DNA of 64,000 nucleotides, taken from positions 21,859 to 85,858 of the forward strand of contig JBBSXC010000003.1 in the NCBI GenBank assembly GCA_038045945.1. Direction: 5' to 3'. Origin of the DNA: Nanobdellota archaeon. Lineage in GTDB: Archaea > Nanobdellota > Nanobdellia > Pacearchaeales > GW2011-AR1. A model generated the notes under the pieces. The model was not told the origin of the DNA. It worked only from the letters and a program-made list of their open reading frames with translations, and ran no database searches. This document shows positions 6,005-21,699 of the stretch, one piece after another (the first letter of the stretch is position 1; each line of letters begins with the position of its first letter). The position numbers and the translations under genes were made by a program.

Positions 6005-6394
6005 ATGATTTTCCTTATGAATAATCATTATGATGCAGTTAGAGCAGGTGCACAAGCATTAGCTAATGCTCTTGAAGGCATTACTGATTTTAGAGGGGTT
6101 TCTGACAGATTCTTCTTAAAACGCATCAATGACCGTGAAATTAATGCTACTACTCTTTATGGCGGTCCCTCTACTGACGCACACCTTTCTCATTCTAGCG
6201 GCAAATTATCATTAACTATTCCTCAATTTAGGGATCCTATTATTGATGTTCACTTACCTGCTGACCACTTTGAAGTACCTGAAGGTTACGAAGTTGTTGG
6301 AAGAAACGGAACATTACACCTAAGAACAACTGCTAAGTCTATAGAAGCACTACAAGAAGAAATAAGAAAAATAACAAGAATAAGAAGAGATTAA
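6005..6394 (+). CDS. Hypothetical protein
   Basis: 129 aa ORF. T-ending codons on the + strand contrast with neighbouring + genes. Convergent with the 12-gene operon and overlaps it by 4 nt. Confidence 0.35.
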   Translation: MIFLMNNHYDAVRAGAQALANALEGITDFRGVSDRFFLKRINDREINATTLYGGPSTDAHLSHSSGKLSLTIPQFRDPIIDVHLPADHFEVPEGYEVVGRNGTLHLRTTAKSIEALQEEIRKITRIRRD

Positions 6395-6972
6395 TCCCTC
6401 ACCCTATCTTCTGTATTAATCTCATAACTAGCATGTGGTAAGTGATACACTGGACTACTTGTTGAAAGTCTTAATGCTAACTCAATATCGTATCCGCTTT
6501 TCTTCAAGTCTTCACGATTTGGGGGCATTTGCTCGACCAATTCTCTAATACTCCTAACTGTTCTAACCTTAACGATGTTACATAAAGAACTACTACAGTC
6601 TCCCCTATAAGAAAATAATGCAACTTCTCCACCATACCGATAAACCTCTACGTATCGATCATCAATTCCCTGCTGAAAAACAAAGTTATCCTTATCAGTC
6701 TGATTATAAACAATTATTTCTTTTGAGTGAGGACCCCTAAAAAGGATTAGCTCATTGTTATCTAAAAAAATACTCATCTTAGGATTACTTTCCTTAACTG
6801 CCTCAAATCTAGTCGGGCCTGTAAAAAACATCATACCTTGGCCTTCCAAAGTCTTATTCATCCTTATAGCAAAAATATCCAAGGGCCTTACTGAAGAACA
6901 ATCCATCGCTTCACTAACATCATAACCTCGAGAACTAAGATCTTCTAGCGGTGAAGGGATTGAAGTAGTCAT
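6391..6972 (-). CDS. Hypothetical protein (operon gene 12 of 12)
   Basis: 193 aa, MTTS start. Its start overlaps the upstream gene's stop by 4 nt (ATGA). Confidence 0.4.
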   Translation of the reverse strand: MTTSIPSPLEDLSSRGYDVSEAMDCSSVRPLDIFAIRMNKTLEGQGMMFFTGPTRFEAVKESNPKMSIFLDNNELILFRGPHSKEIIVYNQTDKDNFVFQQGIDDRYVEVYRYGGEVALFSYRGDCSSSLCNIVKVRTVRSIRELVEQMPPNREDLKKSGYDIELALRLSTSSPVYHLPHASYEINTEDRVRD

Positions 6973-7469
6973 TCTATCCTCCTTGTCAACCTAACCAGTT
7001 GGGAATCAATTATCTCCATCGTTTTTATATTGCTCATTGGCATAGTCCTCATTCTAGAATGCTGAAAATCCAATGACGGAGCAAAAGCCCCCTTGCCTAG
7101 AACTTGGGAATCACTAATTACTAAACTTTCATCATTATGACTTCTATAGAACCCTGCTGCTCTAACATCATTATATATGTGTTCAGCATCCCAAGAGAGT
7201 GTTCCATAATATTGTACTAACAATAAGTCTCCCTCATTAACCTTTGATAAAACTAATCTGGGCTTATACTTTTCTGATTCTAATTCGTCCTGAACTTTCC
7301 AATCATTCAGGCCGTAAGCATGCATCTTCTCCCACAAATTCTTCCTTGATAAGCCTAGAACCGCTGCTGCTTCAGCTTTACGACCTTTAGTAAAAACTAA
7401 AGTATCCTTAATTGCTCTCTTTTCAACTTCGCGAACATAATCAGAAAGAGAACGAGGAAGAAAAGTCAT
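6969..7469 (-). CDS. Fis-type HTH protein (operon gene 11)
   Basis: The N-terminus REVEKRAIKDTLVFTKGRKAEAAAVLGLSRKNLWEKMHAYGL matches the Fis/NtrC C-terminal HTH pattern (G.K..AA..LG.sR..L..KlK..G). 4-nt overlaps on both sides. Confidence 0.5.
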   Translation of the reverse strand: MTFLPRSLSDYVREVEKRAIKDTLVFTKGRKAEAAAVLGLSRKNLWEKMHAYGLNDWKVQDELESEKYKPRLVLSKVNEGDLLLVQYYGTLSWDAEHIYNDVRAAGFYRSHNDESLVISDSQVLGKGAFAPSLDFQHSRMRTMPMSNIKTMEIIDSQLVRLTRRIE

Positions 7470-7876
7470 TTTGTCTCTCCAGATTTTGATCTATCAATAA
7501 TTTTTCTCAGAATATCCCTTACGTTATATGTCTCTCTTGAAATATGTGCATCATTCATTCTTTTCCCAATTCTACCAAAGAGAGAACTAATCTTCTTTCT
7601 GTCATCTTCACTTATATCTTTATGAAATTCCACTGAAGGGTCATACTTCAAATCCTCATTTAATGGGATGGCATAATTATCAAAACCTAAGCCGTAACCT
7701 AATGGTGACTCGTTGTAGTATCTAGTAACATAAAAATTTAAACCACTAACCCTTGAAAAAAGCCTATCTTTACCAAGGCTGAGAGTCTGTGGAGAAGTAT
7801 GAAACTTTAACCAAAAATCAGTAGGAATCTTATCAACAAATTCAATAACGTCATCAAGGGAAATATTAGAAGTCAT
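7466..7876 (-). CDS. Hypothetical protein (operon gene 10)
   Basis: 136 aa, MTSN start, ATGA overlaps. Confidence 0.4.
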   Translation of the reverse strand: MTSNISLDDVIEFVDKIPTDFWLKFHTSPQTLSLGKDRLFSRVSGLNFYVTRYYNESPLGYGLGFDNYAIPLNEDLKYDPSVEFHKDISEDDRKKISSLFGRIGKRMNDAHISRETYNVRDILRKIIDRSKSGETK

Positions 7877-8277
7877 TTTGAGTCCTCCACGAATCTTTCT
7901 AAATCGGACATTATAGCTTCACGATCAGACCATTCTTCTGTTGTGATGCTCTTATCAGTTTCTAATTTTTTATAAAGTCTGTTTAATCTATCATTTATTC
8001 CTTGAACCTGTCCATCAGGGCTTCCACAATCTGCAGAATCTGCTTCAATGGTTTGTAATACATCCAAAAAATCCGTATGAACTATTTCGATTGTTTTTTC
8101 TTTTGCTAACAGGTCTTTCCCTTCCATTTCAACATACCTATGATATATTTTAGCTCTAAATTTGTCATTAAGCTTAGCAACATAAACTCCCATCCCATAA
8201 TTTACTCTTCTCCATTCCTGAACTGGAATAGAATCAAGCTTATCTAACAACTTATACAAAAATTCGTAAGAAGTCAT
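7873..8277 (-). CDS. Hypothetical protein (operon gene 9)
   Basis: 134 aa, MTSY start, ATGA overlaps. Confidence 0.4.
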   Translation of the reverse strand: MTSYEFLYKLLDKLDSIPVQEWRRVNYGMGVYVAKLNDKFRAKIYHRYVEMEGKDLLAKEKTIEIVHTDFLDVLQTIEADSADCGSPDGQVQGINDRLNRLYKKLETDKSITTEEWSDREAIMSDLERFVEDSK

Positions 8278-8624
8278 TTTCCACTCCTAAGATATCTTCT
8301 ACCGCCTTCTTCACAAGCGTCACCTAACTCCTTCTCAATATCCTCTCTTCCTTTAATCTTTGTTATGTTAAGAACCCAATCAGTAAGAACTTGTTTAGAA
8401 TTGCTACTATCTCTAAGTCCTGGATAAGATGTCCTTTTAACAGGGCTTTCATGAATATAGAATGAACTATTCCCTTCCCTATAAGGCCTATAAAAACCAA
8501 CACTTATTTCAACACCAACTACTTTTCCTTCAATAATAGGAAAAGCATAAAGAGCCCTAACCTCGTCACCCTCAACCAAACCATCAAGAGTTTTCAAAAC
8601 CTCATCCTTAGACTGAAAAGTCAT
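8274..8624 (-). CDS. Hypothetical protein (operon gene 8)
   Basis: 116 aa, MTFQ start, ATGA overlaps. Confidence 0.4.
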   Translation of the reverse strand: MTFQSKDEVLKTLDGLVEGDEVRALYAFPIIEGKVVGVEISVGFYRPYREGNSSFYIHESPVKRTSYPGLRDSSNSKQVLTDWVLNITKIKGREDIEKELGDACEEGGRRYLRSGK

Positions 8625-9025
8625 TTTGAGTCCTCCAAGATATCAAGTTTAGATAAGGATCTTTCTTTTTTTCTTAATGCTTGGATTTCACGTGTCTTTT
8701 CTTTGATTTTATCTTTAGACTCTTTTTTCCTTTCTAATTCTCGATATTTATGATTAATCTTTCTATAAAGATTTAAAAATTTATTATTGCTAAAACCAAC
8801 AATATCCTCATTAATACTTTCATCGTCTAAAGTTGCTTCAAATTTGTCACAATATAACCCATAAGACAACATTCTTACTTTTAAATTATTTATTTTAATT
8901 TCATACTCATAAGAATAAGGTCCTGCGGTTTCCTTAACCTGATCAGTAAGCAATATCTTGCTTGCAGGTACTTCAAGCAACTTTCCCGCCAACTTATCAA
9001 AACTAACCTTTCTAAAAGAAGTCAT
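8621..9025 (-). CDS. Hypothetical protein with a Lys/Glu-rich helical C-terminus (operon gene 7)
   Basis: 134 aa, MTSF start. The C-terminus YRELERKKESKDKIKEKTREIQALRKKERSL looks coiled-coil. Confidence 0.4.
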   Translation of the reverse strand: MTSFRKVSFDKLAGKLLEVPASKILLTDQVKETAGPYSYEYEIKINNLKVRMLSYGLYCDKFEATLDDESINEDIVGFSNNKFLNLYRKINHKYRELERKKESKDKIKEKTREIQALRKKERSLSKLDILEDSK

Positions 9026-9435
9026 TTCTCTTCCTCCTTAACATATTTTCCTTTGGCAAAATCAACATACCTAAATTCTATTAATCCGCGATTAACTTTA
9101 GAATAAACCTCAACACCGGCAACTAATAATTCATCATTACATGTAAGTTTTTCATAAAAATCTTTTATAGAATCTAAACCTTCCAGTTTAGGAATCTGAA
9201 CACGAACATAAGAATGCACTGGGATGTATAAACCGGCATTATTGATAACAAATGTAGGTCTTGAATTTTCATTAAGGCAAGCTTCAAGTTTAAAAGTTGT
9301 CCTATTATCAACAACCCATTCTCTACCAAAAGCAAAGTGGGGAGAAGACTGAACTTCGCAAGAATAAACCCCACCTTCAACAACAAAATATTCTAAATCC
9401 TTTTTGTTAGGAACAAAATTACTAGGAAACATCAT
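9022..9435 (-). CDS. Hypothetical protein (operon gene 6)
   Basis: 137 aa, predicted beta-rich, ATGA overlaps. Confidence 0.4.
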   Translation of the reverse strand: MMFPSNFVPNKKDLEYFVVEGGVYSCEVQSSPHFAFGREWVVDNRTTFKLEACLNENSRPTFVINNAGLYIPVHSYVRVQIPKLEGLDSIKDFYEKLTCNDELLVAGVEVYSKVNRGLIEFRYVDFAKGKYVKEEEK

Positions 9436-9935
9436 TTTCTTTCAACCTCATATTTTCTTCTAGCTTGGGAACCTTTAAACATACCATAAAGTCCACCCAT
9501 AGCTGAACCCATCCCTAAAAGAACAGAACTTAATCTTATGGCTTCATAAGGTAATTTTTGTTCATCAAAAGCTTTCATTTCTCCTTGATAATTTTGGTAA
9601 GCATCAGTGCTTGATAATCTTTCAAGTTCGCTATCAGCATAAGATAATGATTCATCAATACCTCTAGAAACCCCCTCGTAAAAGACTGATTTTCTTTTAG
9701 TCCTAAAACCTCTAGTGTCTCTTTCTTCTAACTGATTCTTAATCTCTAATATTTCATTCTTAGCTTCATTAGTAACATCATAAAGAAAAACTTCAGTAGG
9801 CTCAATAGGCTTTTCATCATCTAAATAACTCAAAGCAGGACTAGAAACGCCCAGACCAATGGCGCTCAAAACTATTCCTGCTAAAGAATTACGAGTAATA
9901 GTTTTAGGATGAAGATCCATATTATCTAAAATCAC
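9432..9935 (-). CDS. Membrane protein with two TM segments (operon gene 5)
   Basis: 167 aa. N-terminal TM GIVLSAIGLGVSSPALS and C-terminal TM LLGMGSAMGGLYGMF. Confidence 0.4.
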   Translation of the reverse strand: MILDNMDLHPKTITRNSLAGIVLSAIGLGVSSPALSYLDDEKPIEPTEVFLYDVTNEAKNEILEIKNQLEERDTRGFRTKRKSVFYEGVSRGIDESLSYADSELERLSSTDAYQNYQGEMKAFDEQKLPYEAIRLSSVLLGMGSAMGGLYGMFKGSQARRKYEVERK

Positions 9936-10362
9936 CCCTTAAGAGCATCTCAAGCATTTGTATAGTTACTCTTTCATCATTCAAAGCACGACCGCCTAAA
10001 GAAACAACATGGTTCCTAGCTCCACTAACTCCTGAGTTTAGAACAAATTTATCTTTGGGAACTCTTGACATTATATAATAATAACCATCGTTTAGTCCAT
10101 CGCAAAAATAAATATCTGCCTGAAGAATTTCATGAGTTAAAATGTCTCTGTCATCTATAGCATGGATCCTCTTTGGGTCGTACTTGCTATCTCTAACATC
10201 TTCATCAAATTCTGCCTTAAAATCATCCCAAGATTCTAAGCCATCAAAAGAAGTCTTAACGATTATTGCTCTAGTCTCTGGAATAGTAATTAATTCGCCA
10301 TACCTAGAAGAGAAATCACTAAAAGAATCCTCATAAATAACAATTTTAGGAGAAGAAGTCAT
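9922..10362 (-). CDS. Receiver-like (CheY-fold-like) protein, paralog A (operon gene 4)
   Basis: MTSSPKIVIYED (a beta1 strand ending in an acidic pair). QADIYFCDGLNDG sits where a receiver phospho-Asp would be. KFVLNSGVSG is a hydroxyl-bearing beta4. The conserved Lys is missing. This is a motif-level call only. Confidence 0.35.
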   Translation of the reverse strand: MTSSPKIVIYEDSFSDFSSRYGELITIPETRAIIVKTSFDGLESWDDFKAEFDEDVRDSKYDPKRIHAIDDRDILTHEILQADIYFCDGLNDGYYYIMSRVPKDKFVLNSGVSGARNHVVSLGGRALNDERVTIQMLEMLLRGDFR

Positions 10363-10772
10363 ATTTTTTCTCCCCTAAGTAATTTTTCTAGAAATCCTTG
10401 TGTTATCTCGATTCCTGAGTATGCTCTAACATTCTTTTTTTCAGCTAAGTATCGTATATCGTTATCTCCGGTGTTAAGAACTAATTTTTTATTATCGATC
10501 CTATCCATTAATGTTAATGCTTTTCCAACAAGTCCATCAGAAAAATAAATATCCGCTTGTTGGATATCATGAGAGTTTACTTCCTCGCGGCTAAGGGGAT
10601 TAAAAGTTGTTAGTGGATAATTTGCTTCAACAAATCTTCTAACCTTTGCAGGATCATCTAAGAATTCAACAAAGAAAACATTTACAGGCATAACTTTAAG
10701 AATTTCACCATAACGATCTCTCAATGAAGGCCATTCGTCTTCATAAATAACAATTTTTGGAGAAGAAGTCAT
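10359..10772 (-). CDS. Receiver-like protein, paralog B (operon gene 3), tandem duplicate of the previous gene
   Basis: Shares MTSSPKIVIYED, QADIYFSDGL and KLVLNTGDND with paralog A. Confidence 0.35.
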   Translation of the reverse strand: MTSSPKIVIYEDEWPSLRDRYGEILKVMPVNVFFVEFLDDPAKVRRFVEANYPLTTFNPLSREEVNSHDIQQADIYFSDGLVGKALTLMDRIDNKKLVLNTGDNDIRYLAEKKNVRAYSGIEITQGFLEKLLRGEKI

Positions 10773-10774
10773 AA

Positions 10775-11275
10775 CTAATCTTTCCTCCTTTCGTAAGAAG
10801 ACTCAATACCTAATTTGTGTCTGACCTGAGAAACAACACGCCTACCAACATCATAGCCAAGTGAAGCAAGATAAGAAGCAATATCCCTATCACTAAAAGG
10901 AGCATTACTATCCTCGCTATCAATGTAAGATTTAACTTCATCAAAGACGTATTGGGGAATCTTGTTTCTTTCTCTCTCACTACTAGCTAATATTTCAGCA
11001 TTCTTAACAACATCCTCAATACTACAAGAAATAGGAGGAGAAAGACGAAGATTTTGAAGAAAACCTGTATAGGGTTTACCACCACTACCGCCCAATAAAT
11101 CAAGTTGCAACTTAGAGCGATCATAAACATTAGATCTATCATAAACTTTAGGAAGATCAGCACCACGAGAATAATTAGACTTAGCACTAGGAGGCGGAGA
11201 TGGGCTCTTATAACCGGGTCTGCCAGGAATATTCAACCTTTTCTTACGACCGCGAAACTTACCAGGCTTAGCCAT
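10775..11275 (-). CDS. Gly/Pro/Ser-rich protein with a C-terminal HTH resembling sigma-70 region 4 (operon gene 2)
   Basis: The N-terminus is low complexity (PGRPGYKSPSPPPSAK). The C-terminus SDRDIASYLASLGYDVGRRVVSQVRHKLGI matches the helix-turn-helix pattern of sigma region 4.2 and LuxR-type proteins. Confidence 0.35.
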   Translation of the reverse strand: MAKPGKFRGRKKRLNIPGRPGYKSPSPPPSAKSNYSRGADLPKVYDRSNVYDRSKLQLDLLGGSGGKPYTGFLQNLRLSPPISCSIEDVVKNAEILASSERERNKIPQYVFDEVKSYIDSEDSNAPFSDRDIASYLASLGYDVGRRVVSQVRHKLGIESSYERRKD

Positions 11276-11277
11276 GA

Positions 11278-12576
11278 CTAACTATACCCCCTAGAACTTT
11301 TCTCAAAAGATTTCTTAGCCCTCTGGTATAATACTGAATTGCCAAATTCTCCATCAAGAAATCTTTCCTCACGAGGATCATGCAAAGGAGTACCCTTACT
11401 CAACTCAACAAACGCAAGTCTTTGATAAGGAGTATCACAAGATTCACGCATCTCAGAAAGATGTTTGTGTTTCCCAGAAAGCTTGAACATAGCTGAGTGA
11501 TAATGAAAATCACTCCAATAAAATTCGCCATCAGAAACATCCGATTTACTAAAAGAAGAAAGAATCTTAAAAATTTTTCTTCTACCAAATACTTTAGCAA
11601 GAGGCTGAGCATGATCAATATAGAAAGCCGCAAGCTTCATAGCAGAAGAATCAGAAAACATGTGAGAAGCACTAACAAAGAGACATTCAGCTTTCAAAGG
11701 ATCACTCTTAACAAGTAATTCGGCCTGATCAGCAACAGCTCTGGCTAGAGCGGGATAATGATAAAGAGCATCACCCAGATGAGACTGGACACCGGTTAAA
11801 TGAAACATGGTGTGATGGAAAGAAGAATCGCCGCCACCAATCCTCTTGAAAGCCTCAATACTTTTAATATAAGAATCATCATCAAAAGAAGCTTCAGCAA
11901 TAAAAGAACTAAGAAGGTGAAGAGACCTGTTATCAGGCCAAAGAGTAAGACCCTTATCAGTCAATTCTCTAGCCTTGCCAAGATGGCCATCATGAGTAGC
12001 ATCAGAAGCAATACTCTGAATAACGCAACTAAGACCTTGAGAGTAAGAAATCCTAACTTCTCTTTCACATTTAGAAGGCTCCCAATCAGCAGCAGTACAC
12101 TCGATTGGAAAACGATCAACATCAAGAATCATGTGTTCAAGAGAAGCATACTTACCTAGAGGAGACTTCTTTTGACTAGTAGCAAGCTCAAAATGACCCA
12201 TTTCGCCTTCAACTTCAACATCAGAACAAGCATCCTTAACGCCAGTTTGACACCTAAAACCAGCGCTGTAACCCTTGAGATACATGATACTCGCAATTAA
12301 GAAAGGAAGACCAACACAGTTCCCACCCTTGCGAGAAAGAACATCTTGAGGCCTGAAAGTTTCAGGAACGTATACAAAACCACTTCTTCTAAGGTCTCTC
12401 TTAATATCAAGAGCAGCGACTTTAGGATCAGAATCAACACTAATAGAATCAGCAAGAAATTTCATTTCTCTAAGAGTCCTATCATCCGCACCACAAACCT
12501 CTAAGTAAGAAGAAACTTCAGCACTAGTCCTATCTCCTTGAAGTGCAGTTAGTGGTAAATCTAAAACATCAGTCAT
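11278..12576 (-). CDS. Transglutaminase-like (papain-fold) protein (operon gene 1)
   Basis: 432 aa. SRKGGNCVGLPFLIASIMYLKGYSAGFR matches the transglutaminase-core catalytic Cys motif (G.C..fA.l..al.R..GiPaR). Candidate His follows in GEMGHFELATS. TATA-like element lies in the 12577-12697 divergent region. Confidence 0.45.
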   Translation of the reverse strand: MTDVLDLPLTALQGDRTSAEVSSYLEVCGADDRTLREMKFLADSISVDSDPKVAALDIKRDLRRSGFVYVPETFRPQDVLSRKGGNCVGLPFLIASIMYLKGYSAGFRCQTGVKDACSDVEVEGEMGHFELATSQKKSPLGKYASLEHMILDVDRFPIECTAADWEPSKCEREVRISYSQGLSCVIQSIASDATHDGHLGKARELTDKGLTLWPDNRSLHLLSSFIAEASFDDDSYIKSIEAFKRIGGGDSSFHHTMFHLTGVQSHLGDALYHYPALARAVADQAELLVKSDPLKAECLFVSASHMFSDSSAMKLAAFYIDHAQPLAKVFGRRKIFKILSSFSKSDVSDGEFYWSDFHYHSAMFKLSGKHKHLSEMRESCDTPYQRLAFVELSKGTPLHDPREERFLDGEFGNSVLYQRAKKSFEKSSRGYS

Positions 12577-12629: not shown

Positions 12630-12657
12630 CTGATATTAATGATATGACTGATATTAA
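12630..12657. promoter_or_regulatory. Direct repeat 'ctgatattaa' x2 at 12630-12639 and 12648-12657, a candidate operator in the divergent promoter region
   Basis: Two exact 10-nt copies 8 nt apart sit between the operon start at 12576 and the AbrB-PhoU-like gene start at 12698. 'gttaaaaatagc' lies about 24 nt upstream of the 12698 ATG. Confidence 0.3.
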
Positions 12658-12697
12658 AAAGCGAAAGAGTTAAAAATAGCAAAATCTAGTAGTTTTT

Positions 12698-13615
12698 ATG
12701 GAAGAAAGGAAATTAATTAAGCAAGGTGGAGGTGGATTGACTATTTACCTGCCTAAGAAGTGGGTTGACAGAAGGGGGCTGAAGAACGGGGACAATGTTA
12801 GAGTCCTAGAAACAGACACCTCCCTAATAATTGAGGGTGACATTAATACCAAGAATGAAATAAAAATTGATATTAACGAATCAAACATTCACGACTTAAG
12901 ACACCTGCTTACTCATGCTTACCGTAGGGGTTTTAGCAAAATAATCATTAGTTATAACAAGCCGCAAGAAATAATTAAAGAAACAAAAAAAGTAACTAGT
13001 AACGTGCTTTTAGGATTCGAAGTAACAAGCATTGAACAAAAAAGCATCATTATAGAAAACATTTCTGAACCTAGTGAAGAAAAATTTGATGTAATGCTCC
13101 AAAAAGTATTCTTAGTAATATCAGAAACTAATGAAGTATTATTAAAAGATTTTACTAACGGGAAGTTTTCCAGCATTGACGAAATTAAAGAATTAAGAGA
13201 CCAAGGTGACAAATTCATAATATTCTGCAAAAGACTCATCACTAAGAACAGAAATGATAAAAACAGCCTCCTTGAATGGGAATTCATGACATTCCTTATG
13301 GACATCCACCACAATTACTATTATTTGTACCACTACGCTCATGATAACAAAATTAAGACTAACAAGAACTTCTCTCAATTAATAAAAGACTTAGGACTAT
13401 ACTTTAGTGATTTAAGAAGCGCTTACCTGAAGAGGGATGTATCAATAGTTCACAGAATTAATGAACAAAAAAAGAAATATCACTTTGGTGAAATAATTAA
13501 GCTATTAGAAAAATCGCGAGGGGAAGAAAACATTATCTATTCATACATTAGAGAAATATTTCGTTCAATCCAATTATCAACTAGTCCTATAATGTCAATG
13601 AGTTTGGGATACTAA
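12698..13615 (+). CDS. AbrB/SpoVT N-terminal domain fused to a helical PhoU-like domain (archaeal-type regulator), copy 1
   Basis: MEERKLIKQGGGGLTIYLPKKWVDRRGLKNGDNVRVLETD is a swapped-hairpin AbrB-type motif. The helical C-terminal domain is about 220 aa. Paralogous to 18265..19140. Confidence 0.5.
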   Translation: MEERKLIKQGGGGLTIYLPKKWVDRRGLKNGDNVRVLETDTSLIIEGDINTKNEIKIDINESNIHDLRHLLTHAYRRGFSKIIISYNKPQEIIKETKKVTSNVLLGFEVTSIEQKSIIIENISEPSEEKFDVMLQKVFLVISETNEVLLKDFTNGKFSSIDEIKELRDQGDKFIIFCKRLITKNRNDKNSLLEWEFMTFLMDIHHNYYYLYHYAHDNKIKTNKNFSQLIKDLGLYFSDLRSAYLKRDVSIVHRINEQKKKYHFGEIIKLLEKSRGEENIIYSYIREIFRSIQLSTSPIMSMSLGY

Positions 13616-13627
13616 ATTATTTGTTTC

Positions 13628-15187
13628 TTAATCTTTCTCTCTTCTTTCTTTTATCACTCTATCAGCAGTTCCTTCTCCCTGTTCCTTGTCAAGACTTTGT
13701 TTAGCGTCATAAAGATTTTTTGCTAATTCCCATCTGTCATGAACTCTATCGCCGGAAGTATGAAATTGTGGTCTCATCCAGTTATCAACATAGTTATATG
13801 TTATTTGAAGAACTTTACTCTCGATATCATCTGGGTCCTTTCCTTCTGCTGACATTTCAAGTAGTTTGGTTTTTACGCTTTCATAATCTGTTCTTCCTCC
13901 AGCTCTAACTACTGCTTCATAAGTTACGTCTGGGTTTAGATAAGCTGCAATTGCCGTTTTTTCATCACCTAATTTTTCAACCCACGCTCTAAAATCATAA
14001 GCTTCAGTTATTTCTCCTGCACCTAAATTCAATGCTTCAGCATCTAAGACTTTTTTGCCTTGAAGTGCAACACGAATGATTTTTTCTTTACGCTCATAAC
14101 TCAAATCTTTTTTATTTGAGTCTACTTTTTGAGCAAGACTATCCTTCTCTTGATTCAATGAAGTTACCTCGTTACGAATAGCAGCAAATCCTAAAGCTAC
14201 AGCAGTCAAAGCACCATTTATCAAGAACCATCTCTTAGCCCGTGCACGAGGCTTTGATGATTCATACCTCTTCATTGCTTTACTAAATTCTTCTTCAAGT
14301 GATTCTCCATCCTTGTATCTATCTGATGGGTCATAAGCTAAACACTTCCTCAAAAACGGTCTTAGAGGTTTAGGAATGTTTGATAATGAATCTTCAATCA
14401 TACCTTTATATTCCTGAAGACCAATATTTCTCATTGATTCAATTGGATCTTTAGAATTTTCTAACCTTTTTTCTGTAGGGTACTTACCACTAAGCAGCTT
14501 GACTGCTAGAGAACCAACTGACCAAACATCTGACTGAGTTGTTGGGTGAGAATTATCAGCAAATACTTCTGGAGCTCTGATAGCTACATGACCAATATTG
14601 TCTCTTGGGCTCTCACTCCAATCTTCTGGACTAACTGTTGTAGCAGTACCTGTATCGGCAATAACTAATCTTGTTCGACTACTGCCAGCCGGATCATAAG
14701 ACATTATGTTATCAGAATTTAAGTCTCCATGAACTCTAGAGAAATCTGTGTGTAACTCCTTTACTCCATGAACTATGTCCTCTAGCCCTAAAAGGATGGT
14801 TTCTGTTCTCTTGCTTCCTTTAAGGTAATGGTTCCAGTATTCTTCCCAATTCCTTAGAGTACTATGACATTGAGGCATCCAAATAAATGGTTTACCATCA
14901 AGGTCTTTGAATGGAACTGATGGAAGAACGTTACGTGCTGGAGCAAATCTTGATTCTCTAATTAAGACATCAGTCTCATTAATGTTTCTATGAACTCTTT
15001 GCTTTTTAGCAATTTCTGATGGAGAAAAAACCTTTATTGCCCCGTGCTGACCACTAATAACATCAAAAGCAGCATAGACTGCTCCATTACTTCCTCTCCC
15101 CAACTCTTGATAATTAACAAATCTGTCAGAACGAATAACATCCTCATGACCATCACTCCTCTTAGGGATACTACTACTAGAACTCAT
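13628..15187 (-). CDS. Membrane-spanning Hanks-type Ser/Thr protein kinase, copy 1
   Basis: Glycine loop and VAIK-equivalent GRGSNGAVYAAFD...AIKVF. Catalytic loop VHGDLNSDNIM. DFG-like IADTGTA. RAPEVF...DVWSVG matches the APE and DxWSxG subdomains. One TM helix WFLINGALTAVALGFAAI, then a C-terminal domain of about 180 aa. Confidence 0.7.
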   Translation of the reverse strand: MSSSSSIPKRSDGHEDVIRSDRFVNYQELGRGSNGAVYAAFDVISGQHGAIKVFSPSEIAKKQRVHRNINETDVLIRESRFAPARNVLPSVPFKDLDGKPFIWMPQCHSTLRNWEEYWNHYLKGSKRTETILLGLEDIVHGVKELHTDFSRVHGDLNSDNIMSYDPAGSSRTRLVIADTGTATTVSPEDWSESPRDNIGHVAIRAPEVFADNSHPTTQSDVWSVGSLAVKLLSGKYPTEKRLENSKDPIESMRNIGLQEYKGMIEDSLSNIPKPLRPFLRKCLAYDPSDRYKDGESLEEEFSKAMKRYESSKPRARAKRWFLINGALTAVALGFAAIRNEVTSLNQEKDSLAQKVDSNKKDLSYERKEKIIRVALQGKKVLDAEALNLGAGEITEAYDFRAWVEKLGDEKTAIAAYLNPDVTYEAVVRAGGRTDYESVKTKLLEMSAEGKDPDDIESKVLQITYNYVDNWMRPQFHTSGDRVHDRWELAKNLYDAKQSLDKEQGEGTADRVIKERREKD

Positions 15188-15342
15188 TCTAAAACCTCCA
15201 CTATTGGTTCATCAATAATATCAATAGAAAGCCTAACTATGGTGCCTGGTTTAAGTTTTCCCTCAATTGATCGAGGAATAACAATTATAGATTGAGAACC
15301 ATGCTTAGCAATACGCTTAGTAAGAGAAAATTTCTTAGTCAT
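15184..15342 (-). CDS. AbrB/MazE-like swapped-hairpin protein, 52 aa, translationally coupled to kinase 1
   Basis: MTKKFSLTKRIAKHGSQSIIVIPRSIEGKLKPGTIVRLSIDII. Its stop overlaps the kinase ATG (ATGA). 'ctttatatag' lies about 30 nt upstream of its ATG on the - strand. The 73 aa start in the track would run through that TATA element. Confidence 0.45.
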   Translation of the reverse strand: MTKKFSLTKRIAKHGSQSIIVIPRSIEGKLKPGTIVRLSIDIIDEPIVEVLE

Positions 15343-15459
15343 TTTATGTATAAAATACATAAAGAAAAAGACTATATAAAGCTTACGAAGTAGTGTAACT
15401 AACAAGTGGTAATAATGTCTAGAAAAAGCCTTAAATATAAGTAATCCCTAAAGATTACT

Positions 15460-15696
15460 ATGAAGACTATTACTATAAAGCTTCCTGAGAGAGAAGCTGA
15501 AGAGCTTGAATTATTTGTTAAGTCTAGCGGTTATCCTTCGAAATCGGAATTTATTAGACACTTAATAGTTGGTAAGATGGGTTTAGAAAGAAAAGAAAAG
15601 CTCGGATGGATGATGCTTGGCCAAAAAGCTTTAGCTAAAAGATGGAATAATCCTAAAGATGATAAGGTATGGAGCAGTTATATAAAAAATGATTAA
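15460..15696 (+). CDS. Ribbon-helix-helix (CopG-like) antitoxin
   Basis: ITIKLPEREAEELELFVKSSGYPSKSEFIRHLI is a typical RHH beta-alpha-alpha fold. Overlaps the downstream toxin gene by 8 nt. Confidence 0.55.
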   Translation: MKTITIKLPEREAEELELFVKSSGYPSKSEFIRHLIVGKMGLERKEKLGWMMLGQKALAKRWNNPKDDKVWSSYIKND

Positions 15697-16030
15697 TCAA
15701 GGAGACTTATTATTGGCGCCTTTTCCCTTTTCAGATCAGTCTGGAAGAAAAGTAAGGCCTGTAATTGTTATTAGTAATGACAAATATAACTCTCATCATG
15801 ATGATATAGTTGCAGTTGGTGTAACGTCTAACGTTTTCAAAAATCCATACTACATTGATTTCACCAATGCTGACTTAGACTTTGGTAATCTAGTAACTGT
15901 TTGCTCAATAATGGCTGATAGTCTAACACTGCTTGATAAAGAATTGATTACTAAAAGAATCGGTAAAGTTAACAAGAACAAAATGAAAACAGTTTTTGAT
16001 AAAGTTGTTGAAATAATAAAAACTAAATAA
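15689..16030 (+). CDS. MazF/PemK-family toxin (endoribonuclease-type)
   Basis: GDLLLAPFPFSDQSGRKVRPVIVIS matches the MazF/PemK N-terminal signature (GdivlvdfPfsd.sg.K.RPalVls). Confidence 0.55.
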   Translation: MINQGDLLLAPFPFSDQSGRKVRPVIVISNDKYNSHHDDIVAVGVTSNVFKNPYYIDFTNADLDFGNLVTVCSIMADSLTLLDKELITKRIGKVNKNKMKTVFDKVVEIIKTK

Positions 16031-16902: not shown

Positions 16903-18144
16903 TTACTTAAAATTATAAGTTAAGCCAAGCATACCTGAATAAGAATTTTTACCTTCTACAGGCATAGCAGCACGAAGGGCGAAGTCTAAACTAAGACTCT
17001 TATCAGCATTAGTGTAAATTTTAGCTCTTAAATCAGCATTATTAACACTCAAACTCTTATCATTAAGATCAGAATGCCTACCAACTTGTAAAACAACATC
17101 CTTAATCCATGAATCACTAACGCTACCTAAACCAACAGCAACATCGGAGTTAAAGTATCTGCTTGAAGGTTCATCATGATACTTAACGTCAAAACTAATG
17201 CTGCCTAAATTACCACTATTGCTAGCTGAAGCACCAAAGAAATCAATTCTAGAGTCGCCATCACCGATGCCGAAAGGGAAAGTAGCATCACCATCTCCAC
17301 CAAGGAATGGAGTAATGGAGTTGAAAAGAGTGTCCTGAGTACCAACAAGGAAAGCACCACCTGGAGCCTTCTTACCAAAACGAACCCTAGCCTCAAAACC
17401 CTTATTTTGGCCTTGAACAGTATCAAAAACTTTAGCTTGAGTGAGAACTTTGTAACCGTCTATAGCACTATTAGCATCAGACCACTTGTAAGAGAAAGCA
17501 GTGTTAAAAGTATCAGAATCATTAACTCTATGACCGCCAATACCAAAATCAATCTTATTATCATTAAATACTAAAGCATAACCAAAATTACCATCGCTAT
17601 CAGCAGTAACCTGAGGTTTAAACTTATCAACATTAAAACCGATAGCACTAGCAAGTCGGTTCTCAAAAGGTTTAGCATTATCCTGGAATTCAAAATTAAG
17701 GAAGTCAAGAGTACTATCTTTGAATGATTTCTCAAGCATAAGGCGACCATTATCCAAAGATGAATCTAAGAAAGACTGATAACCCGCATTAAAGCGAACA
17801 CCAGTATTAGACTCAGACTTACCAAAAGTTAAGTCAGCACCATAAATATTAGATCCGTTCTCGCCACGATAAGCAACCTTACCTAAATCACTAGAAAGAA
17901 TCTGGTGAGTTTGCAAACCACCATGACCATCAGCATAAGCTCTAGAAGTCAAAACTACAGAATCAACAGCCCTTTCTAAGTCAGACTTAGCTGGAGCATT
18001 ATCTCCGGCTAGAGCACTAGCTCCAAGAGCATAAGGCATCAAGGCAGCAGTTAAAGCTGCAACATTAGCCATTTTCCTTATACTTTTTCTTATTGTTTGT
18101 TTCATTGTATTTTTATCCATCATCTTATGGTCTGTCGTAACCAC
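16903..18144 (-). CDS. Secreted beta-strand-rich protein, possibly surface or porin-like
   Basis: Signal peptide MANVAALTAALMPYALGASALA. Alternating hydrophobic pattern throughout. C-terminus MLGLTYNFK. Confidence 0.45.
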   Translation of the reverse strand: MVTTDHKMMDKNTMKQTIRKSIRKMANVAALTAALMPYALGASALAGDNAPAKSDLERAVDSVVLTSRAYADGHGGLQTHQILSSDLGKVAYRGENGSNIYGADLTFGKSESNTGVRFNAGYQSFLDSSLDNGRLMLEKSFKDSTLDFLNFEFQDNAKPFENRLASAIGFNVDKFKPQVTADSDGNFGYALVFNDNKIDFGIGGHRVNDSDTFNTAFSYKWSDANSAIDGYKVLTQAKVFDTVQGQNKGFEARVRFGKKAPGGAFLVGTQDTLFNSITPFLGGDGDATFPFGIGDGDSRIDFFGASASNSGNLGSISFDVKYHDEPSSRYFNSDVAVGLGSVSDSWIKDVVLQVGRHSDLNDKSLSVNNADLRAKIYTNADKSLSLDFALRAAMPVEGKNSYSGMLGLTYNFK

Positions 18145-18264
18145 TTAATGATAACATAATAGCAGAAATCTTGGGATATAAACATTTTTATTAAACTATA
18201 TAAACTAGTATAAATCTATATATATTTAGGAAAAGCTTAAATATCGGTCTATATTAACAATCAA

Positions 18265-19140
18265 ATGAAACGTAAATTAGTACAACAAGGGGCTAGCACA
18301 ATGATGATTAGTCTACCTAGCAAGTGGGTTAAGGCAAATAACCTGATAAAGGGGAGCGAAGTGGACATGGATGAAAAGGGTAAAGAAATAGTTATTTCAA
18401 CTTCAATCAAGAAAGATAATGAAAAAAAGGCCGTAGTGGACCTATCAGGATATGATTTGCTAATAAACAGAGTTATAGTTTCTCTATACCTTAAGGGATA
18501 TGAGGAAGTAGAACTAATATTCAAAAACCGTGAAGAAATGAAGAAAGTGAAGAAGCATGTCCTTGAAGAATTGCTTGGTTTTGAAGTAATAAAACAGGAA
18601 CAAAATAAGATGATCATAAGAGACCTTACAGGTTTTGAAAAACAAAATATTGATGATGTGATAAAGAGGATATTCTTCGTTCTAGATGGGATGCTTGAAG
18701 ACTTAATTAATGCTGTAAACAAAAAAGAAAGCCTTGATGGAATAGTCGACCTTGATTCAAGCATTAATAAGCTGACACACTTTTCACTTAGAATACTTAA
18801 CTCTAAAGGATATTCTCAAGCAGATAAGACCGAAGAATTCTATGGTATGATCTCGATACTTGAACAAATTGGCGACTTAATAAAACAATTAGTGATGGAC
18901 TTAACAAAAGACAAACTTTCAACAAACCAACTAGAAGTAATCAGAAAAATTAGATTACTGTTAGATATTTTTTGCAAAATATTGTTTAAGTTTAATAAAG
19001 AAGAAGCTGTTAAATTCGCAAAACTATACCAAGAAATAAAAGATTCAATAAAGAATAAGAATAAGGTTGACTTAACGCTTAACCAGATTAACGAGGCGAT
19101 AATAAGAATGAATAACCACTTGCTGGTAACCGTGTTATAA
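18265..19140 (+). CDS. AbrB/SpoVT N-terminal domain fused to a PhoU-like helical domain, copy 2
   Basis: MKRKLVQQGASTMMISLPSKWVKANNLIKGSEVDMDEKGKEIVIS. Same architecture and gene context as 12698..13615. Confidence 0.5.
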   Translation: MKRKLVQQGASTMMISLPSKWVKANNLIKGSEVDMDEKGKEIVISTSIKKDNEKKAVVDLSGYDLLINRVIVSLYLKGYEEVELIFKNREEMKKVKKHVLEELLGFEVIKQEQNKMIIRDLTGFEKQNIDDVIKRIFFVLDGMLEDLINAVNKKESLDGIVDLDSSINKLTHFSLRILNSKGYSQADKTEEFYGMISILEQIGDLIKQLVMDLTKDKLSTNQLEVIRKIRLLLDIFCKILFKFNKEEAVKFAKLYQEIKDSIKNKNKVDLTLNQINEAIIRMNNHLLVTVL

Positions 19141-20730
19141 TTATATGTCTTGATGGTAGTAAGCAAGCCAAGCATCAACAAACTTTCTCCCATCTTTATC
19201 TAAAAACTTTCTGTAAGACTTGTAATCATTACTATTAGATTTAGACTTTACTTCTCTTAATTTACCAATTCCGGATCTTGAGACTACCATCGTATCTTCA
19301 ACGTCTACATTACCCTTACTATCTCGGCATTCTTCAATTGCCACTTCTAGTGATGCAGCAATTGTTGGGAAAAAGGGGCCAAATGCTGGATCATTCTTAT
19401 CAAAATCTTTATTGTTCAACTTGGCAAATAATCTTGATTGATACTCTGTTAATCTTTCGCCTCTAACATCTGAATTTGCTTGTGCGAAACTCTTAGCAAA
19501 ATAAGCAACAATTTTATCCTTTGATGCTAACTTAGCGTACCTGTCAAAACCTTGTTGAATCATGCCATCAGCAGTTTCATAGTCTAAATATTCCTGGCTA
19601 CTTTCTGAAACGAAAGATGTTTGTTTGCCTTCAAAAATCTCATCTTTTGGTTGATAAAGCATTCCCCTAACTTCTTGATCTGATAATTGTCTTCTTTCTG
19701 GAATTAATGAAGAAGCATAAATGCCAAAACCTATTAGTCCGCCAAGCCCTAATGCTCCTAAACCAAACCTTCTAGTATACTTTTTGAATTCATTCATTAC
19801 GTGAGACTTATCAAGTGTTCTTTCTAAGTTTTCTTTAAGGTCTGTACCGTTGCTAAACCTTTTATTTTCATCAATATTAAGTCCTTTTGAAAAGAACTTT
19901 CTTATCCTTCTGTCACTAATTTTCTCTTTAATTCTTCTATCTATGAATTCTTGTATAGCCTCTTTACTTGAACTCTTTATCTCATCATAACTTAAACCCT
20001 CTAGGGGGTATTCCCCAGTTTTTAACTTAAACATTAATGCTGTAGCACTATAGGTGTCTGTTCTCTTTGTAGGGTGACTCCCTTCATTAAAAAGTTCTGG
20101 GGCTCTAGTTAAAAACCATCCGATATTATCTCTTGGGGACTGAGTCATTCCCATACCTTCAACCGTTGATGCACCAAAATCATTAAGTAACAATCGTCCC
20201 TCTAAATTAATGGCAAAATTTCCCGGATGACCATCACCATGGACTCTGTTTAGTCCTGCCTTTGAGTGAACTTCGCTATATGCCGTTGCAATATCCCTCA
20301 CATAATGATCAAAATGGGGTTCTACCTTCTCCTCCCATGATGAAGGATTATAAGGATTATCTTTTGCTATAACCTCTAACATTTTATCTAAAAACATGTC
20401 GTAAGGGGGCATTACAATGAATCTTCTACCATTCTTATCGACTTCAAATCTTGTTGGAACAACTCTTGAACAAGCAGAAAGCTGAACAGCCTCATTATCC
20501 ATTGCTTTATTCTCATCAAGATTTCTCTTAGGCATCTTACCTAAAGCTTCATCCGTTGGAGCAAAAACTTTTATTGCAACATCCTGGCCCGTTATTCTGT
20601 CTTTACCCTTATAAACAATACCCCAAGAGCCCATACCGTAAATCTCTGCAGGATCAAAAGAATACCTATAAGAATCAATGATCCCAGGGTTCCCCCTTCT
20701 AGAGACAAAAGAATTATCCGTTTCAGTCAT
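19141..20730 (-). CDS. Membrane-spanning Hanks-type Ser/Thr protein kinase, copy 2
   Basis: GMGSWGIVYKGKD...VAIKVF. Catalytic loop VHGDGHPGNFAINL. DFG in LLLNDFGAS. TRAPELF...SHPT. TM helix FGLGALGLGGLIGFGIYASSLI. C-terminal domain of about 190 aa. Confidence 0.7.
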   Translation of the reverse strand: MTETDNSFVSRRGNPGIIDSYRYSFDPAEIYGMGSWGIVYKGKDRITGQDVAIKVFAPTDEALGKMPKRNLDENKAMDNEAVQLSACSRVVPTRFEVDKNGRRFIVMPPYDMFLDKMLEVIAKDNPYNPSSWEEKVEPHFDHYVRDIATAYSEVHSKAGLNRVHGDGHPGNFAINLEGRLLLNDFGASTVEGMGMTQSPRDNIGWFLTRAPELFNEGSHPTKRTDTYSATALMFKLKTGEYPLEGLSYDEIKSSSKEAIQEFIDRRIKEKISDRRIRKFFSKGLNIDENKRFSNGTDLKENLERTLDKSHVMNEFKKYTRRFGLGALGLGGLIGFGIYASSLIPERRQLSDQEVRGMLYQPKDEIFEGKQTSFVSESSQEYLDYETADGMIQQGFDRYAKLASKDKIVAYFAKSFAQANSDVRGERLTEYQSRLFAKLNNKDFDKNDPAFGPFFPTIAASLEVAIEECRDSKGNVDVEDTMVVSRSGIGKLREVKSKSNSNDYKSYRKFLDKDGRKFVDAWLAYYHQDI

Positions 20731-20903
20731 TTCTTTACCTCCTTTTCTTCAACCTTTATTTTGTCTTCTAAAACATCAATAGACAACTTAACAATCATAC
20801 CAGGCTTAAGGTGCTGCTCAAGAATTCTCGGAACAACAATGATTGCCTGGCTACCATGCTTAGCAATACGCTTAGTGATAATAAAGTTTTGTTTAGAAGT
20901 CAT
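20727..20903 (-). CDS. AbrB/MazE-like swapped-hairpin protein, 58 aa, translationally coupled to kinase 2. It is under the 60 aa track cutoff.
   Basis: Translated by hand as MTSKQNFIITKRIAKHGSQAIIVVPRILEQHLKPGMIVKLSIDVLEDKIKVEEKEVKK. Its stop overlaps the kinase ATG (ATGA). It is paralogous to 15184..15342. Confidence 0.45.
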   Translation of the reverse strand: MTSKQNFIITKRIAKHGSQAIIVVPRILEQHLKPGMIVKLSIDVLEDKIKVEEKEVKK

Positions 20904-21214
20904 TACTCATGCCACCCTTCCATTGATGAATCAAGAGATTTAGGAGAATACCTAAGAGAAAGAAGTCTAACAAGCGGCTCTAAAACTCTTTTTTCTTCAG
21001 GTTTAAAACCCTTAATAGAATGACTACCAGAAAAATGATCTGGGCGTACTAATGAATCCTCAAGGACACTTCTTAACAAATCGTTAAAAGAGGTATAATT
21101 TCTAACTTTCATATCGAAAACAGTTTCACCGCTCTGATTACCAAAAAGACTAATAAAAGTATAACTACAAATACCCTCTTCATCAGTTCTTTTAAGTGAA
21201 ACTTGGTAAGCCAT
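20903..21214 (-). CDS. Hypothetical protein, first gene of the kinase-2 operon
   Basis: Start chosen at MAYQVSLKRTDEEG..., about 104 aa. Its stop shares one nucleotide with the small AbrB-like start (TAATG). The longer 130 aa start in the track would run through an AT-rich promoter-like stretch. Confidence 0.3.
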   Translation of the reverse strand: MAYQVSLKRTDEEGICSYTFISLFGNQSGETVFDMKVRNYTSFNDLLRSVLEDSLVRPDHFSGSHSIKGFKPEEKRVLEPLVRLLSLRYSPKSLDSSMEGWHE

Positions 21215-21318
21215 ATTTTTATTATAAATTATACATCCTTTATGTATAGAAAATGGAAGCAAAAAGGGTATAAAAACCTTACTAAATGTAATCACTAAAG
21301 AGTTACACTAAAATGAGT

Positions 21319-21699
21319 TTAATTGTTTTCGTTAGGTGTTTCTTCGGCTAAGTATCCTTTTATCTCATCAATTATCGTCTTTAGTTCTTCTGTTTGTGGA
21401 ATTTTTCCTTCTTCAACTAAAACATTTCTCGCTTTCCTGATAATTTTACTATAAGGGGTTTTTGATAGTGAAGATTGTTCTGCTCCCATGCATAAAGTTG
21501 ACTTAAATAATAAATCTGGCGAATAAATACCTTTTTCTAGATTAAGTAATTGTCCTCTAGGGGAAACTGTTTCTTCTTTCATAACTTTGTAAACTGGGTC
21601 TAAAGCTTTACAAAAACCGCTATGAACATTATCAACCATTAATTCTGATACTTCTTCCCTAGCATTATGAGACTCGACACTTCCTTGATTTTCAACCAT
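21319..21699 (-). CDS. Hypothetical protein
   Basis: 126 aa. Its stop lies 8 nt inside the upstream FAD oxidase gene. Confidence 0.35.
   Translation of the reverse strand: MVENQGSVESHNAREEVSELMVDNVHSGFCKALDPVYKVMKEETVSPRGQLLNLEKGIYSPDLLFKSTLCMGAEQSSLSKTPYSKIIRKARNVLVEEGKIPQTEELKTIIDEIKGYLAEETPNENN

Follow-up and report, generated by a model that had tools for sequence, protein, structure and literature searches.

What does a gene of 52 codons do at the head of a membrane kinase gene whose start it overlaps? This question is raised by a locus on the 445-kb contig JBBSXC010000003.1 of a Nanobdellota archaeon, analysed here within a stretch of 64,000 nt (the window) that derives from a 0.1-µm-filtered groundwater metagenome (Hainich). 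In this locus the small gene, S1, leads the gene of a Hanks-type Ser/Thr kinase, K1, and a third gene, AP1, encoding a regulator with an AbrB-type and a PhoU-like domain, is convergent with K1. NCBI labels the cassette proteins 'Nanoarchaeota archaeon'. A previous reading of the sequence (hereafter the original prediction) had likened the arrangement to kinase toxins of the HipBA type and had considered an abortive-infection module, a logic that we do not follow. We favour, at somewhat better than even confidence, a signalling cassette specific to Woese-/Pacearchaeota, in which the small protein S would be an autorepressor leading receptor kinases that probably signal through S and/or the AbrB-PhoU protein.

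All three open reading frames (ORFs) of the original prediction were found in place, the quoted 52-aa sequence included, and its designation of the module as copy 1 proved apt, as the window holds a second copy with the same layout. The two copies of the three-gene cassette occupy 12698-15342 and 18265-20903; their genes and the first gene of the copy 2 operon are as follows.

12698-13615, + strand: AP1, 305-aa AbrB / Alba-like / PhoU-like regulator (ORF, Pfam, AlphaFold2 (AF2) model and Foldseek).
13628-15187, - strand: K1, 519-aa membrane-anchored Hanks-type Ser/Thr kinase (Pfam Pkinase, catalytic residues, hydropathy).
ATG 15342 to stop 15184, - strand: S1, 52-aa mini-AbrB-like putative autorepressor, probably a cradle-loop half-barrel (ORF, conserved family).
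18265-19140, + strand: AP2, 291-aa AbrB-PhoU regulator (Pfam MazE_antitoxin and PhoU).
19141-20730, - strand: K2, 529-aa membrane Hanks-type kinase (Pfam, alignment, hydropathy).
20727-20903, - strand: S2, 58-aa paralogue of S1, 63% identical to it (ORF, homologues).
20903-21214, - strand: gene of a 103-aa protein, first of the copy 2 operon, its stop overlapping the S2 start by 1 nt.

The TGA of S1 and the ATG of K1 overlap as ATGA, and the S2/K2 junction shows the same ATGA-type 4-nt overlap; the translational coupling proposed for the small ORF and the kinase is therefore backed by both copies. AP1 and K1 are convergent, as had been described, with 12 nt between their stops rather than the 13 bp given before, while AP2 converges on K2 with 0 nt between them. 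AP1 is divergent from an operon at 11278-12576. The 103-aa protein has no Pfam or PADLOC match. Between the copies, identity amounts to 32% for the kinases (kinase domain only), 63% for S and 30% for the AbrB-PhoU proteins, and the two copies read as old paralogues.

Conservation of this arrangement was assessed in a synteny sample of 83 S genes in 80 loci from GTDB species, for which ORFs were called and hidden Markov models were built for the three families. A kinase-family ORF lay directly downstream of S in 28 of the 83 cases, many with the exact 4-nt overlap (nine loci besides the window), and in 23 of these 28 pairs the next gene was a convergent AbrB-PhoU gene. A kinase was located within 4 kb of S in 2 further cases, and a convergent AbrB-PhoU gene 1.5-2.9 kb downstream of six further S genes; 7 S genes were on contigs too short to judge. 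Altogether, ~34-36 of the 76 evaluable S genes (~45%) belong to the cassette. Pfam confirmed a Pkinase domain in 8/9 of the large S-downstream proteins tested. Concordantly, when the neighbours were clustered, 30 of the 38 kinase-cluster members were the next gene after S (+1) in the orientation of S, and 23 AbrB-PhoU genes were at +2 in the opposite orientation; the family ranking next was found in 9 loci only. The pair of small DNA binder and kinase that had been picked out in the window does recur in other genomes.

Some loci carry variants of the cassette. An APH/EcKL-type kinase-like protein fills the kinase slot in three of them (L033, L041 and L064). In L033 (8142-8639) and L061 (8155-8667) an AlaE-like membrane protein (Pfam AlaE, L-alanine exporter, E=3e-20 and 3e-16, respectively) is encoded between S and a protein of 705-763 aa; this large protein is APH-type kinase-like in L033 and has no Pfam match in L061. 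The AlaE variant may point to a connection with the sensing or export of amino acids.

The S family is narrowly distributed. Its homologues form 111 clusters at 90% identity, all of 43-85 aa; at 50% identity, a set of 1.84 billion proteins yields only 152 clusters. GTDB species genomes hold 297 copies confirmed by tblastn, some genomes having at least two. The family is confined to Nanoarchaeota (Woese-/Pacearchaeota), every database name is 'hypothetical protein', and our literature search found no description of the cassette or of the S family. The core of ~45 aa follows the pattern ITKRIAKHGSQAIIVVPRILEQHLKPGT.V.L.I., with nine positions invariant across 87 sequences; the invariant residues include H14, G15, Q17, I20, P23, E27, L30 and P32. 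The N-terminal half is basic, with invariant K9, K13 and H14 and an R or K at position 24, and Thr8 is invariant as well. Past the core, the median tail length is 5-7 aa. That S might be a chance ORF or a leader peptide was rejected on account of the 90% clusters, the genomic copies and the nine invariant residues. By its conservation, S is a real, strongly constrained gene.

The 70 nt upstream of the S start codons were aligned, revealing a stereotyped promoter that consists of a B recognition element and TATA box (BRE/TATA, GAAAGNTTTAWATA), ~15-20 nt, two half-sites and the ATG. The half-sites, TATGTATA or TATACATA, lie between TATA box and ATG and start 10-13 nt apart. Motif A was defined as the operator pair TATGTATA-N3/4-TATGTATA, and the chance level was taken from block shuffles. 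Exact pairs of the 7-mer occurred 43 times in 1.08 Mb of loci, compared to 0.7 expected (shuffle maximum 3). Directly 5' of S were 28 of these 43 pairs; the other 15 were upstream of S in its locus, at positions fitting the promoter of the gene or genes that precede S in the operon, an arrangement that was traced in detail for copy 2 of the window. When up to one mismatch was allowed, 87 motif A sites were obtained, ~79 of them at S-operon promoters. The control elements in the window are given below.

15345-15363, - strand: motif A operator of copy 1, TTTATGTATTTTATACATA, a pair of TATRYATA-like half-sites located 3-21 nt before the S1 ATG and over the predicted transcription start.
15373-15386, - strand: BRE/TATA-like element GTAAGCTTTATATA of the S1-kinase operon (TATA 15373-15380), in a layout as in S promoters elsewhere.
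21230-21248, - strand: motif A operator of copy 2, TATACATAAAGGATGTATA, 16 nt upstream of ATG 21214 of the 103-aa gene and downstream of a TATA-like stretch at ~21269-21278, with a transcription start predicted at ~21247.
12663-12676, + strand: BRE/TATA-like element of the AP1 promoter, which the ATG follows 22 nt downstream.

The public gene call starts S1 18 nt further upstream, resulting in a 58-aa protein. We favour the 52-aa start because the TATA box at 15373-15380 predicts a transcription start near 15350, and because of the position of the operator. A second element that looks conserved by eye, approximately AGT(A/G)(A/G)TTACA, is present just upstream of BRE/TATA in promoters of both the S type and the ribbon-helix-helix (RHH) type described below, and sometimes again just before the ATG; examples are at 21287-21296 and 15393-15403 in the window and in L011, L012, L090 and L098. 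An exact-pattern scan of the window for such a AGTAGTTACA-like motif upstream of BRE/TATA gave 1 match against 0.8 expected, so it was not enriched. Divergently from S1, a toxin-antitoxin pair is encoded at 15460-16030 (+), composed of an RHH protein (78 aa, Pfam RHH_1) and a PemK/MazF protein (113 aa, E=1e-14); the 117 bp upstream of this pair are the same intergenic region that contains the promoter and operator of S1.

Approaching the cassette from the kinase side, we used a degenerate DNA pattern for PRDNIG...RAPE and obtained 10 metagenome loci, a small sample of which 7 included upstream DNA. In L090 and L094 an RHH protein of 52-53 aa (Pfam RHH_1, E=1e-4) overlaps the kinase start by 4 nt and a convergent AbrB-family protein of ~300 aa follows; in L087 a similar RHH protein is encoded two genes upstream of the kinase. 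A database search with the RHH protein returned 29 small clusters, and the RHH proteins that replace S have 46-56 aa. All 4 RHH contexts looked up show the same order, the RHH gene overlapping that of a 533-708-aa protein (Pkinase by Pfam in 3/4) and a convergent AbrB-family gene for ~300 aa. Judged from sequence, two small dimeric DNA-binding-type folds, unrelated to each other, alternate in the slot ahead of the kinase. Moreover, the RHH-type promoters do not contain motif A and carry TTATAC-N2-AGTAATACTACT or GGTAGCA-N6-TGCTAC at the same position. The operator thus changes together with the small protein, and no other observation speaks as strongly for the small protein being an operator-binding autoregulator.

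The Pfam model Pkinase (PF00069) matched K1 with E=1.7e-24 (87.1 bits) and K2 with E=1e-14 (55.0 bits), at a gathering cut-off of 31.7. In an alignment of K1, K2 and 18 relatives, G32, D155, N160, D178 and P206 were invariant and K52 and H153 nearly so. Both kinases have an HGD catalytic motif (non-RD), and the subsequent motif is DTG in K1 and DFG in K2. The catalytically dead domain that the original prediction had reckoned with as a possible objection was not encountered: the Gly loop, the Lys, the H-x-D, the Asn, the DFG Asp and the APE positions are kept, and K1 and K2 are predicted to be catalytically competent. Hydropathy indicated one transmembrane segment after the kinase domain (~319-340 in K1), which together with the Pfam match bears out the earlier description as a Ser/Thr kinase with a single transmembrane helix. 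K1 is composed of the kinase domain (~25-300), this segment and a C-terminal domain of ~180 aa beyond it. The latter domain spans ~180-900 aa in cassette kinases, being longer in the relatives, and differs between subfamilies; that of K2 is unrelated to that of K1 and common to the kinases in L014, L020, L029, L037, L068 and L069. The closest PDB relatives of the kinase are the eukaryotic PAK1 and CDPK1 (E ~1e-12). As read from domain order and hydropathy, K1 and K2 have the architecture of receptor kinases.

The third gene had been described as encoding an AbrB domain fused to a PhoU-like domain, and both family and structure matches sustain this. AP1 itself gave only sub-threshold MazE_antitoxin/SpoVT-AbrB matches (16.9 bits at a cut-off of 24.7); AP2 matched MazE_antitoxin above the cut-off (25.3 bits) and PhoU with E=0.016. 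Within the AbrB-PhoU family, PF04014 was detected in 27/27 members (best E=7.8e-9) and PhoU (PF01895) in 5/27 (best E=1.4e-5). The AF2 model of AP1 has a predicted local distance difference test score (pLDDT) of 88, and in Foldseek its ten best matches are all to PhoU or PhoU-like structures (probability 1.0, template modelling (TM) score 0.51-0.70). For residues 54-121 an alpha/beta fold like that of Alba/Ssh10b is predicted, with Foldseek probabilities of 0.84-1.0 and a target-normalised TM score of 0.46-0.68. With the AbrB domain and this Alba-like middle domain, AP1 may carry two nucleic-acid-binding modules. JGI names the AbrB-PhoU homologues 'phosphate uptake regulator'.

AbrB-PhoU promoters were searched for motif A, the S-type operator, and none was found in them. 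Directly upstream of the AP1 BRE/TATA we noticed by eye, without statistics, a direct repeat of CTGATATTAA at 12630-12639 and 12648-12657 (+), which might serve the AbrB-PhoU regulator as its operator. A CTATATA-rich stretch at 18195-18225 holds the equivalent place upstream of AP2. Genes for periplasmic binding proteins are often divergent from AbrB-PhoU (L097, L100).

The original prediction assigned S to the AbrB/MazE fold. S1 and S2 had no Pfam or NCBIfam match at E<=0.1, neither the window copies nor the family members tested matched PF04014 or TIGR01439 significantly, and profile searches of the PDB with S likewise gave no significant match, PhS018 (2glw) being nearest with E=0.39; PhS018 has been placed among the cradle-loop barrels (PMC11258233). 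Sub-threshold matches to MazE_antitoxin (PF04014) were obtained for 1/36 family members (E=0.0073) and for 2/8 divergent members (E=0.053 and 0.085); the divergent members show a more AbrB-like pattern, KQG..L.IP....LK.GDLV.V. Comparison by hhalign with the N-terminal AbrB domain of the AbrB-PhoU proteins was in register but weak (E 0.013-0.021, probability 2-3%). The AF2 model of S (pLDDT 84) shows a strand at 3-10, a loop, a short helix at 24-27 and a strand at 35-42, that is, beta-alpha-beta. Its top PDB matches in Foldseek, at E=0.5, are 8jvp and 8jvn, designed homodimeric half-barrel peptides corresponding to the Ph1 and mk2h designs (PMC11258233). A database protein of 101 aa, P0232, is a natural head-to-tail tandem fusion of two S domains, which suggests a two-fold symmetric S dimer. 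An AbrB-like fold of S is plausible from these sequence patterns, and taken with the model they point to S probably being a homodimeric beta-beta-alpha-beta half of an AbrB-related cradle-loop barrel. The proposed fold therefore survives as a suggestive, in-register and sub-threshold likeness, and did not gain a significant match.

Combining these observations, we propose that S, probably in the form of a dimer of dimers, would occupy the operator of two TATGTATA-like half-sites, 11-12 bp apart, that overlaps the transcription start and would thereby autorepress its own operon. The translationally coupled receptor kinase would have its N-terminal kinase domain in the cytoplasm and its variable C-terminal domain probably outward as a sensor. 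A signal sensed outside would lead the kinase to modify or bind S and/or AbrB-PhoU, the latter made from its own promoter, and transcription of S-controlled operons and of neighbouring genes would be altered as a result. Speculatively, convergence of many kinases on a single repressor and a single operator would account for a near-invariant S beside diverse kinases. A more specific version, which we put forward tentatively and consider possible rather than probable, takes S as the common phospho-acceptor and output of several receptor kinases with different sensors: phosphorylation, e.g. at Thr8 in the first strand, would free S from the TATGTATA-pair operator and de-repress the S regulon, and AbrB-PhoU would modulate the kinase as PhoU does PhoR.

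Several results weigh against the signalling cassette as proposed. Neither a kinase nor an AbrB-PhoU gene is near 40 of the 76 evaluable S genes, which head unrelated operons; S thus has no exclusive tie to kinases, and the data do not call for a direct link between the two. These 40 operons are diverse, mostly with overlaps of 4-8 nt, and their first products include His/Gly-rich acidic proteins and others that by sequence alone read like radical-SAM enzymes, receiver domains, methyltransferases and GTPases. In the small kinase-side sample S was upstream of only 3/7 kinases. The genes divergent from AbrB-PhoU were not conserved across loci in the neighbour clustering. Motif A was derived from the same promoters at which it is counted, and the block shuffle covers chance occurrence, not the identity of the binder. 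The fold assignment of S is without statistical support from Pfam, PDB, Foldseek and profile comparisons, and its DNA binding and phosphorylation are putative.

The alternative that survives best is that S is a generic operon-leader autoregulator which is only co-transcribed with the kinase, the true signalling pair being kinase and AbrB-PhoU. S core identity is alike within kinase contexts (0.71), within other contexts (0.69) and between the two groups (0.70), and the operator accompanies S whatever lies downstream. Furthermore, AbrB-PhoU tracks the kinase, in 23/28 S-linked and 4/4 RHH contexts, and does not occur in S contexts without a kinase. However, the kinase is by far the commonest partner of S, as the neighbour clustering showed, and where S is absent an RHH small DNA binder takes the same overlapping position. 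The presence of RHH in the exact position of S suggests that the kinase specifically needs a small DNA-binding partner. We regard S as a mere generic leader as rather unlikely.

We judge a toxin-antitoxin or abortive-infection system, in which the kinase would be a growth-arresting toxin or phage sensor that S (or RHH) neutralises while also repressing its own operon, to be very unlikely. The cassette does resemble such systems: the larger gene, here the effector, is overlapped at its start by a small gene of the AbrB-like or RHH type, as expected of an upstream antitoxin, and the operator extends over the promoter, which is also the case in type II toxin-antitoxin operons. Several copies are found per genome, true toxin-antitoxin genes are neighbours (the RHH-PemK pair at 15460-16030, and ParE), and the kinase domains match the defence-kinase models mad6 (2e-27), PD-T4-6 (2e-19) and MkoA. 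However, these PADLOC matches span the generic kinase domain only and score about like, or no better than, Pfam Pkinase; PADLOC reported no defence-system protein set, and S, AbrB-PhoU and the 103-aa protein were without matches in it. The kinases do not belong to the HipA family, Pfam giving Pkinase and PK_Tyr_Ser-Thr and no HipA domains, and their transmembrane helix and variable C-terminal domain of ~180-900 aa constitute a receptor architecture. The short tail of S leaves almost nothing for neutralisation of a toxin. Moreover, identity between S proteins did not co-vary with identity between the partner kinases (Spearman 0.008, p=0.87, 400 pairs), S being ~71% identical across contexts where the kinases are ~28% identical, and the S cores of kinase and other contexts are indistinguishable. 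S and its operator are common to paralogous operons, from which cross-regulation is predicted, whereas toxin-antitoxin pairs need insulation. S also heads operons whose first products read as radical-SAM-, methyltransferase- or GTPase-like and, by Pfam, two that are AlaE-like, and toxin-antitoxin logic offers no role for AbrB-PhoU, the conserved third gene. In view of receptor architecture, short tail, missing co-variation, shared operator and third gene, the HipBA-like toxin of the original prediction is poorly supported.

The least likely explanation, and a highly improbable one, is that S does not bind DNA, that it is a small adaptor, a subunit of a chaperone or the gene of a leader peptide for translational coupling, and that another factor binds the motif: the fold and DNA binding of S are putative, and not all cradle-loop barrels, such as VatN-N and PhS018, are known to bind DNA, but variant loci fill the slot with a bona fide RHH fold (RHH_1, E=1e-4) and change the operator along with it, the N-terminal half of S is basic (K9, K13, H14, R/K24), and the exact motif A pairs are all at S-operon promoters.

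Further features were noted around the cassettes and elsewhere in the window. A 413-aa protein encoded at 16903-18144 (-), divergently from AP2, has a signal-peptide-like N-terminus, ends in ...GLTYNFK and has no Pfam match; it looks like a secreted or beta-rich surface protein, and in other loci its homologues, 349-413 aa long, are again found at a distance of 3-4 genes downstream from S. Upstream of the S2 operon, 21319-23748 (-) encodes a CCG-domain protein, a FAD_binding_4 oxidase and then a small ORF of 126 aa. The same CCG/FAD_binding_4/small ORF set (small ORF of 117 aa) is syntenic with an S operon in L002 (605-2978), where a kinase of 814 aa is encoded three genes downstream of S. A tandem array of ~ten paralogous ORFs of 116-193 aa with overlapping stops and starts, several of which begin with MTSSPKIVIYED, occupies 6391-10772 (-); none has a Pfam match except the 166-aa member at 6969-7469, which matches HTH_8. 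The array is preceded by another 166-aa protein (10775-11275) with a C-terminal Sigma54_DBD-type helix-turn-helix (E=1.8e-10), a domain that seems out of place in an archaeon.

DPANN archaea are uncultivated and have reduced genomes, and their sensing and regulation are almost undescribed. What is defined here is a family of 45 residues, a likely operator within a stereotyped promoter, a three-gene cassette with two AbrB-type regulators, and the swap between mini-AbrB and RHH. Should the proposed kinase-S link be true, the cassette would be among the simplest known transmembrane signalling-to-transcription circuits, and S would be a natural minimal half-barrel DNA binder that bears on models of cradle-loop barrel evolution. 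If S were in addition the phospho-acceptor, a Hanks kinase and a 45-residue DNA binder would form an archaeal functional equivalent of two-component signalling in a lineage with few conventional signalling systems. If the link is false, the annotation of these cassettes as other than toxin-antitoxin or defence modules is still useful. In either case, S is a new small-protein family with a well-defined candidate operator, and the cassette itself belongs to the known kind of a Hanks kinase with a co-encoded transcription factor.

Compared to SpoVT/AbrB and other cradle-loop barrels (AbrB-N, MazE, MraZ, PhS018 and the mk2h/DZBB designs), S probably shares the beta-beta-alpha-beta unit of ~45 aa, and with the SpoVT/AbrB barrels it shares the pattern K-x-G...I-P...L-K-x-G-(D)-x-V. 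It differs from AbrB and MazE in the absence of the fourth strand and in the replacement of the GD box by PG(T/M) in most members, and none of the matches is significant. AP1 and AP2 share the N-terminal SpoVT/AbrB domain and the C-terminal six-helix PhoU-like domain with the archaeal AbrB-PhoU 'phosphate uptake regulator' proteins (COG0704-type) and bacterial PhoU. In contrast to these, they add an Alba-like middle domain, have no pst genes nearby and are in a fixed convergent pairing with a Ser/Thr kinase, whereas bacteria use a histidine kinase; bacterial PhoU partners with the membrane kinase PhoR.

With type II toxin-antitoxin systems (AbrB/MazE or RHH antitoxins) and HipBA, the cassette has in common a small DNA-binding-type gene overlapping a larger gene and an operator over the promoter; in type II systems, too, AbrB-like and RHH folds are interchangeable in one slot. 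In contrast to HipBA, the effector is a membrane receptor eukaryotic-type protein kinase (ePK) and not a soluble HipA-fold kinase, and S, unlike type II antitoxins, lacks a neutralising extension, does not co-evolve with the kinase and has an operator that is not insulated between paralogues; it also precedes operons that are not toxin-like. The closest precedents are Hanks kinases with transcription-factor substrates, namely PknH-EmbR in Mycobacterium tuberculosis and PrkC/PrkD/YabT-AbrB in Bacillus subtilis (PMC6213207). They share the receptor ePK plan of kinase, one transmembrane helix and C-terminal sensor (in the cassette a probable one) beside genes of DNA-binding proteins, and in B. 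subtilis an AbrB-type regulator is a known Hanks-kinase substrate (PMC6213207). Different from these, the present system belongs to an archaeal (DPANN) lineage, and S is a mini-protein with a 45-aa core that lacks an FHA or other phospho-recognition domain. Unlike both precedents, the cassette, known here from sequence alone, adds a convergent AbrB-PhoU partner, and its small protein and operator are common to many operons.

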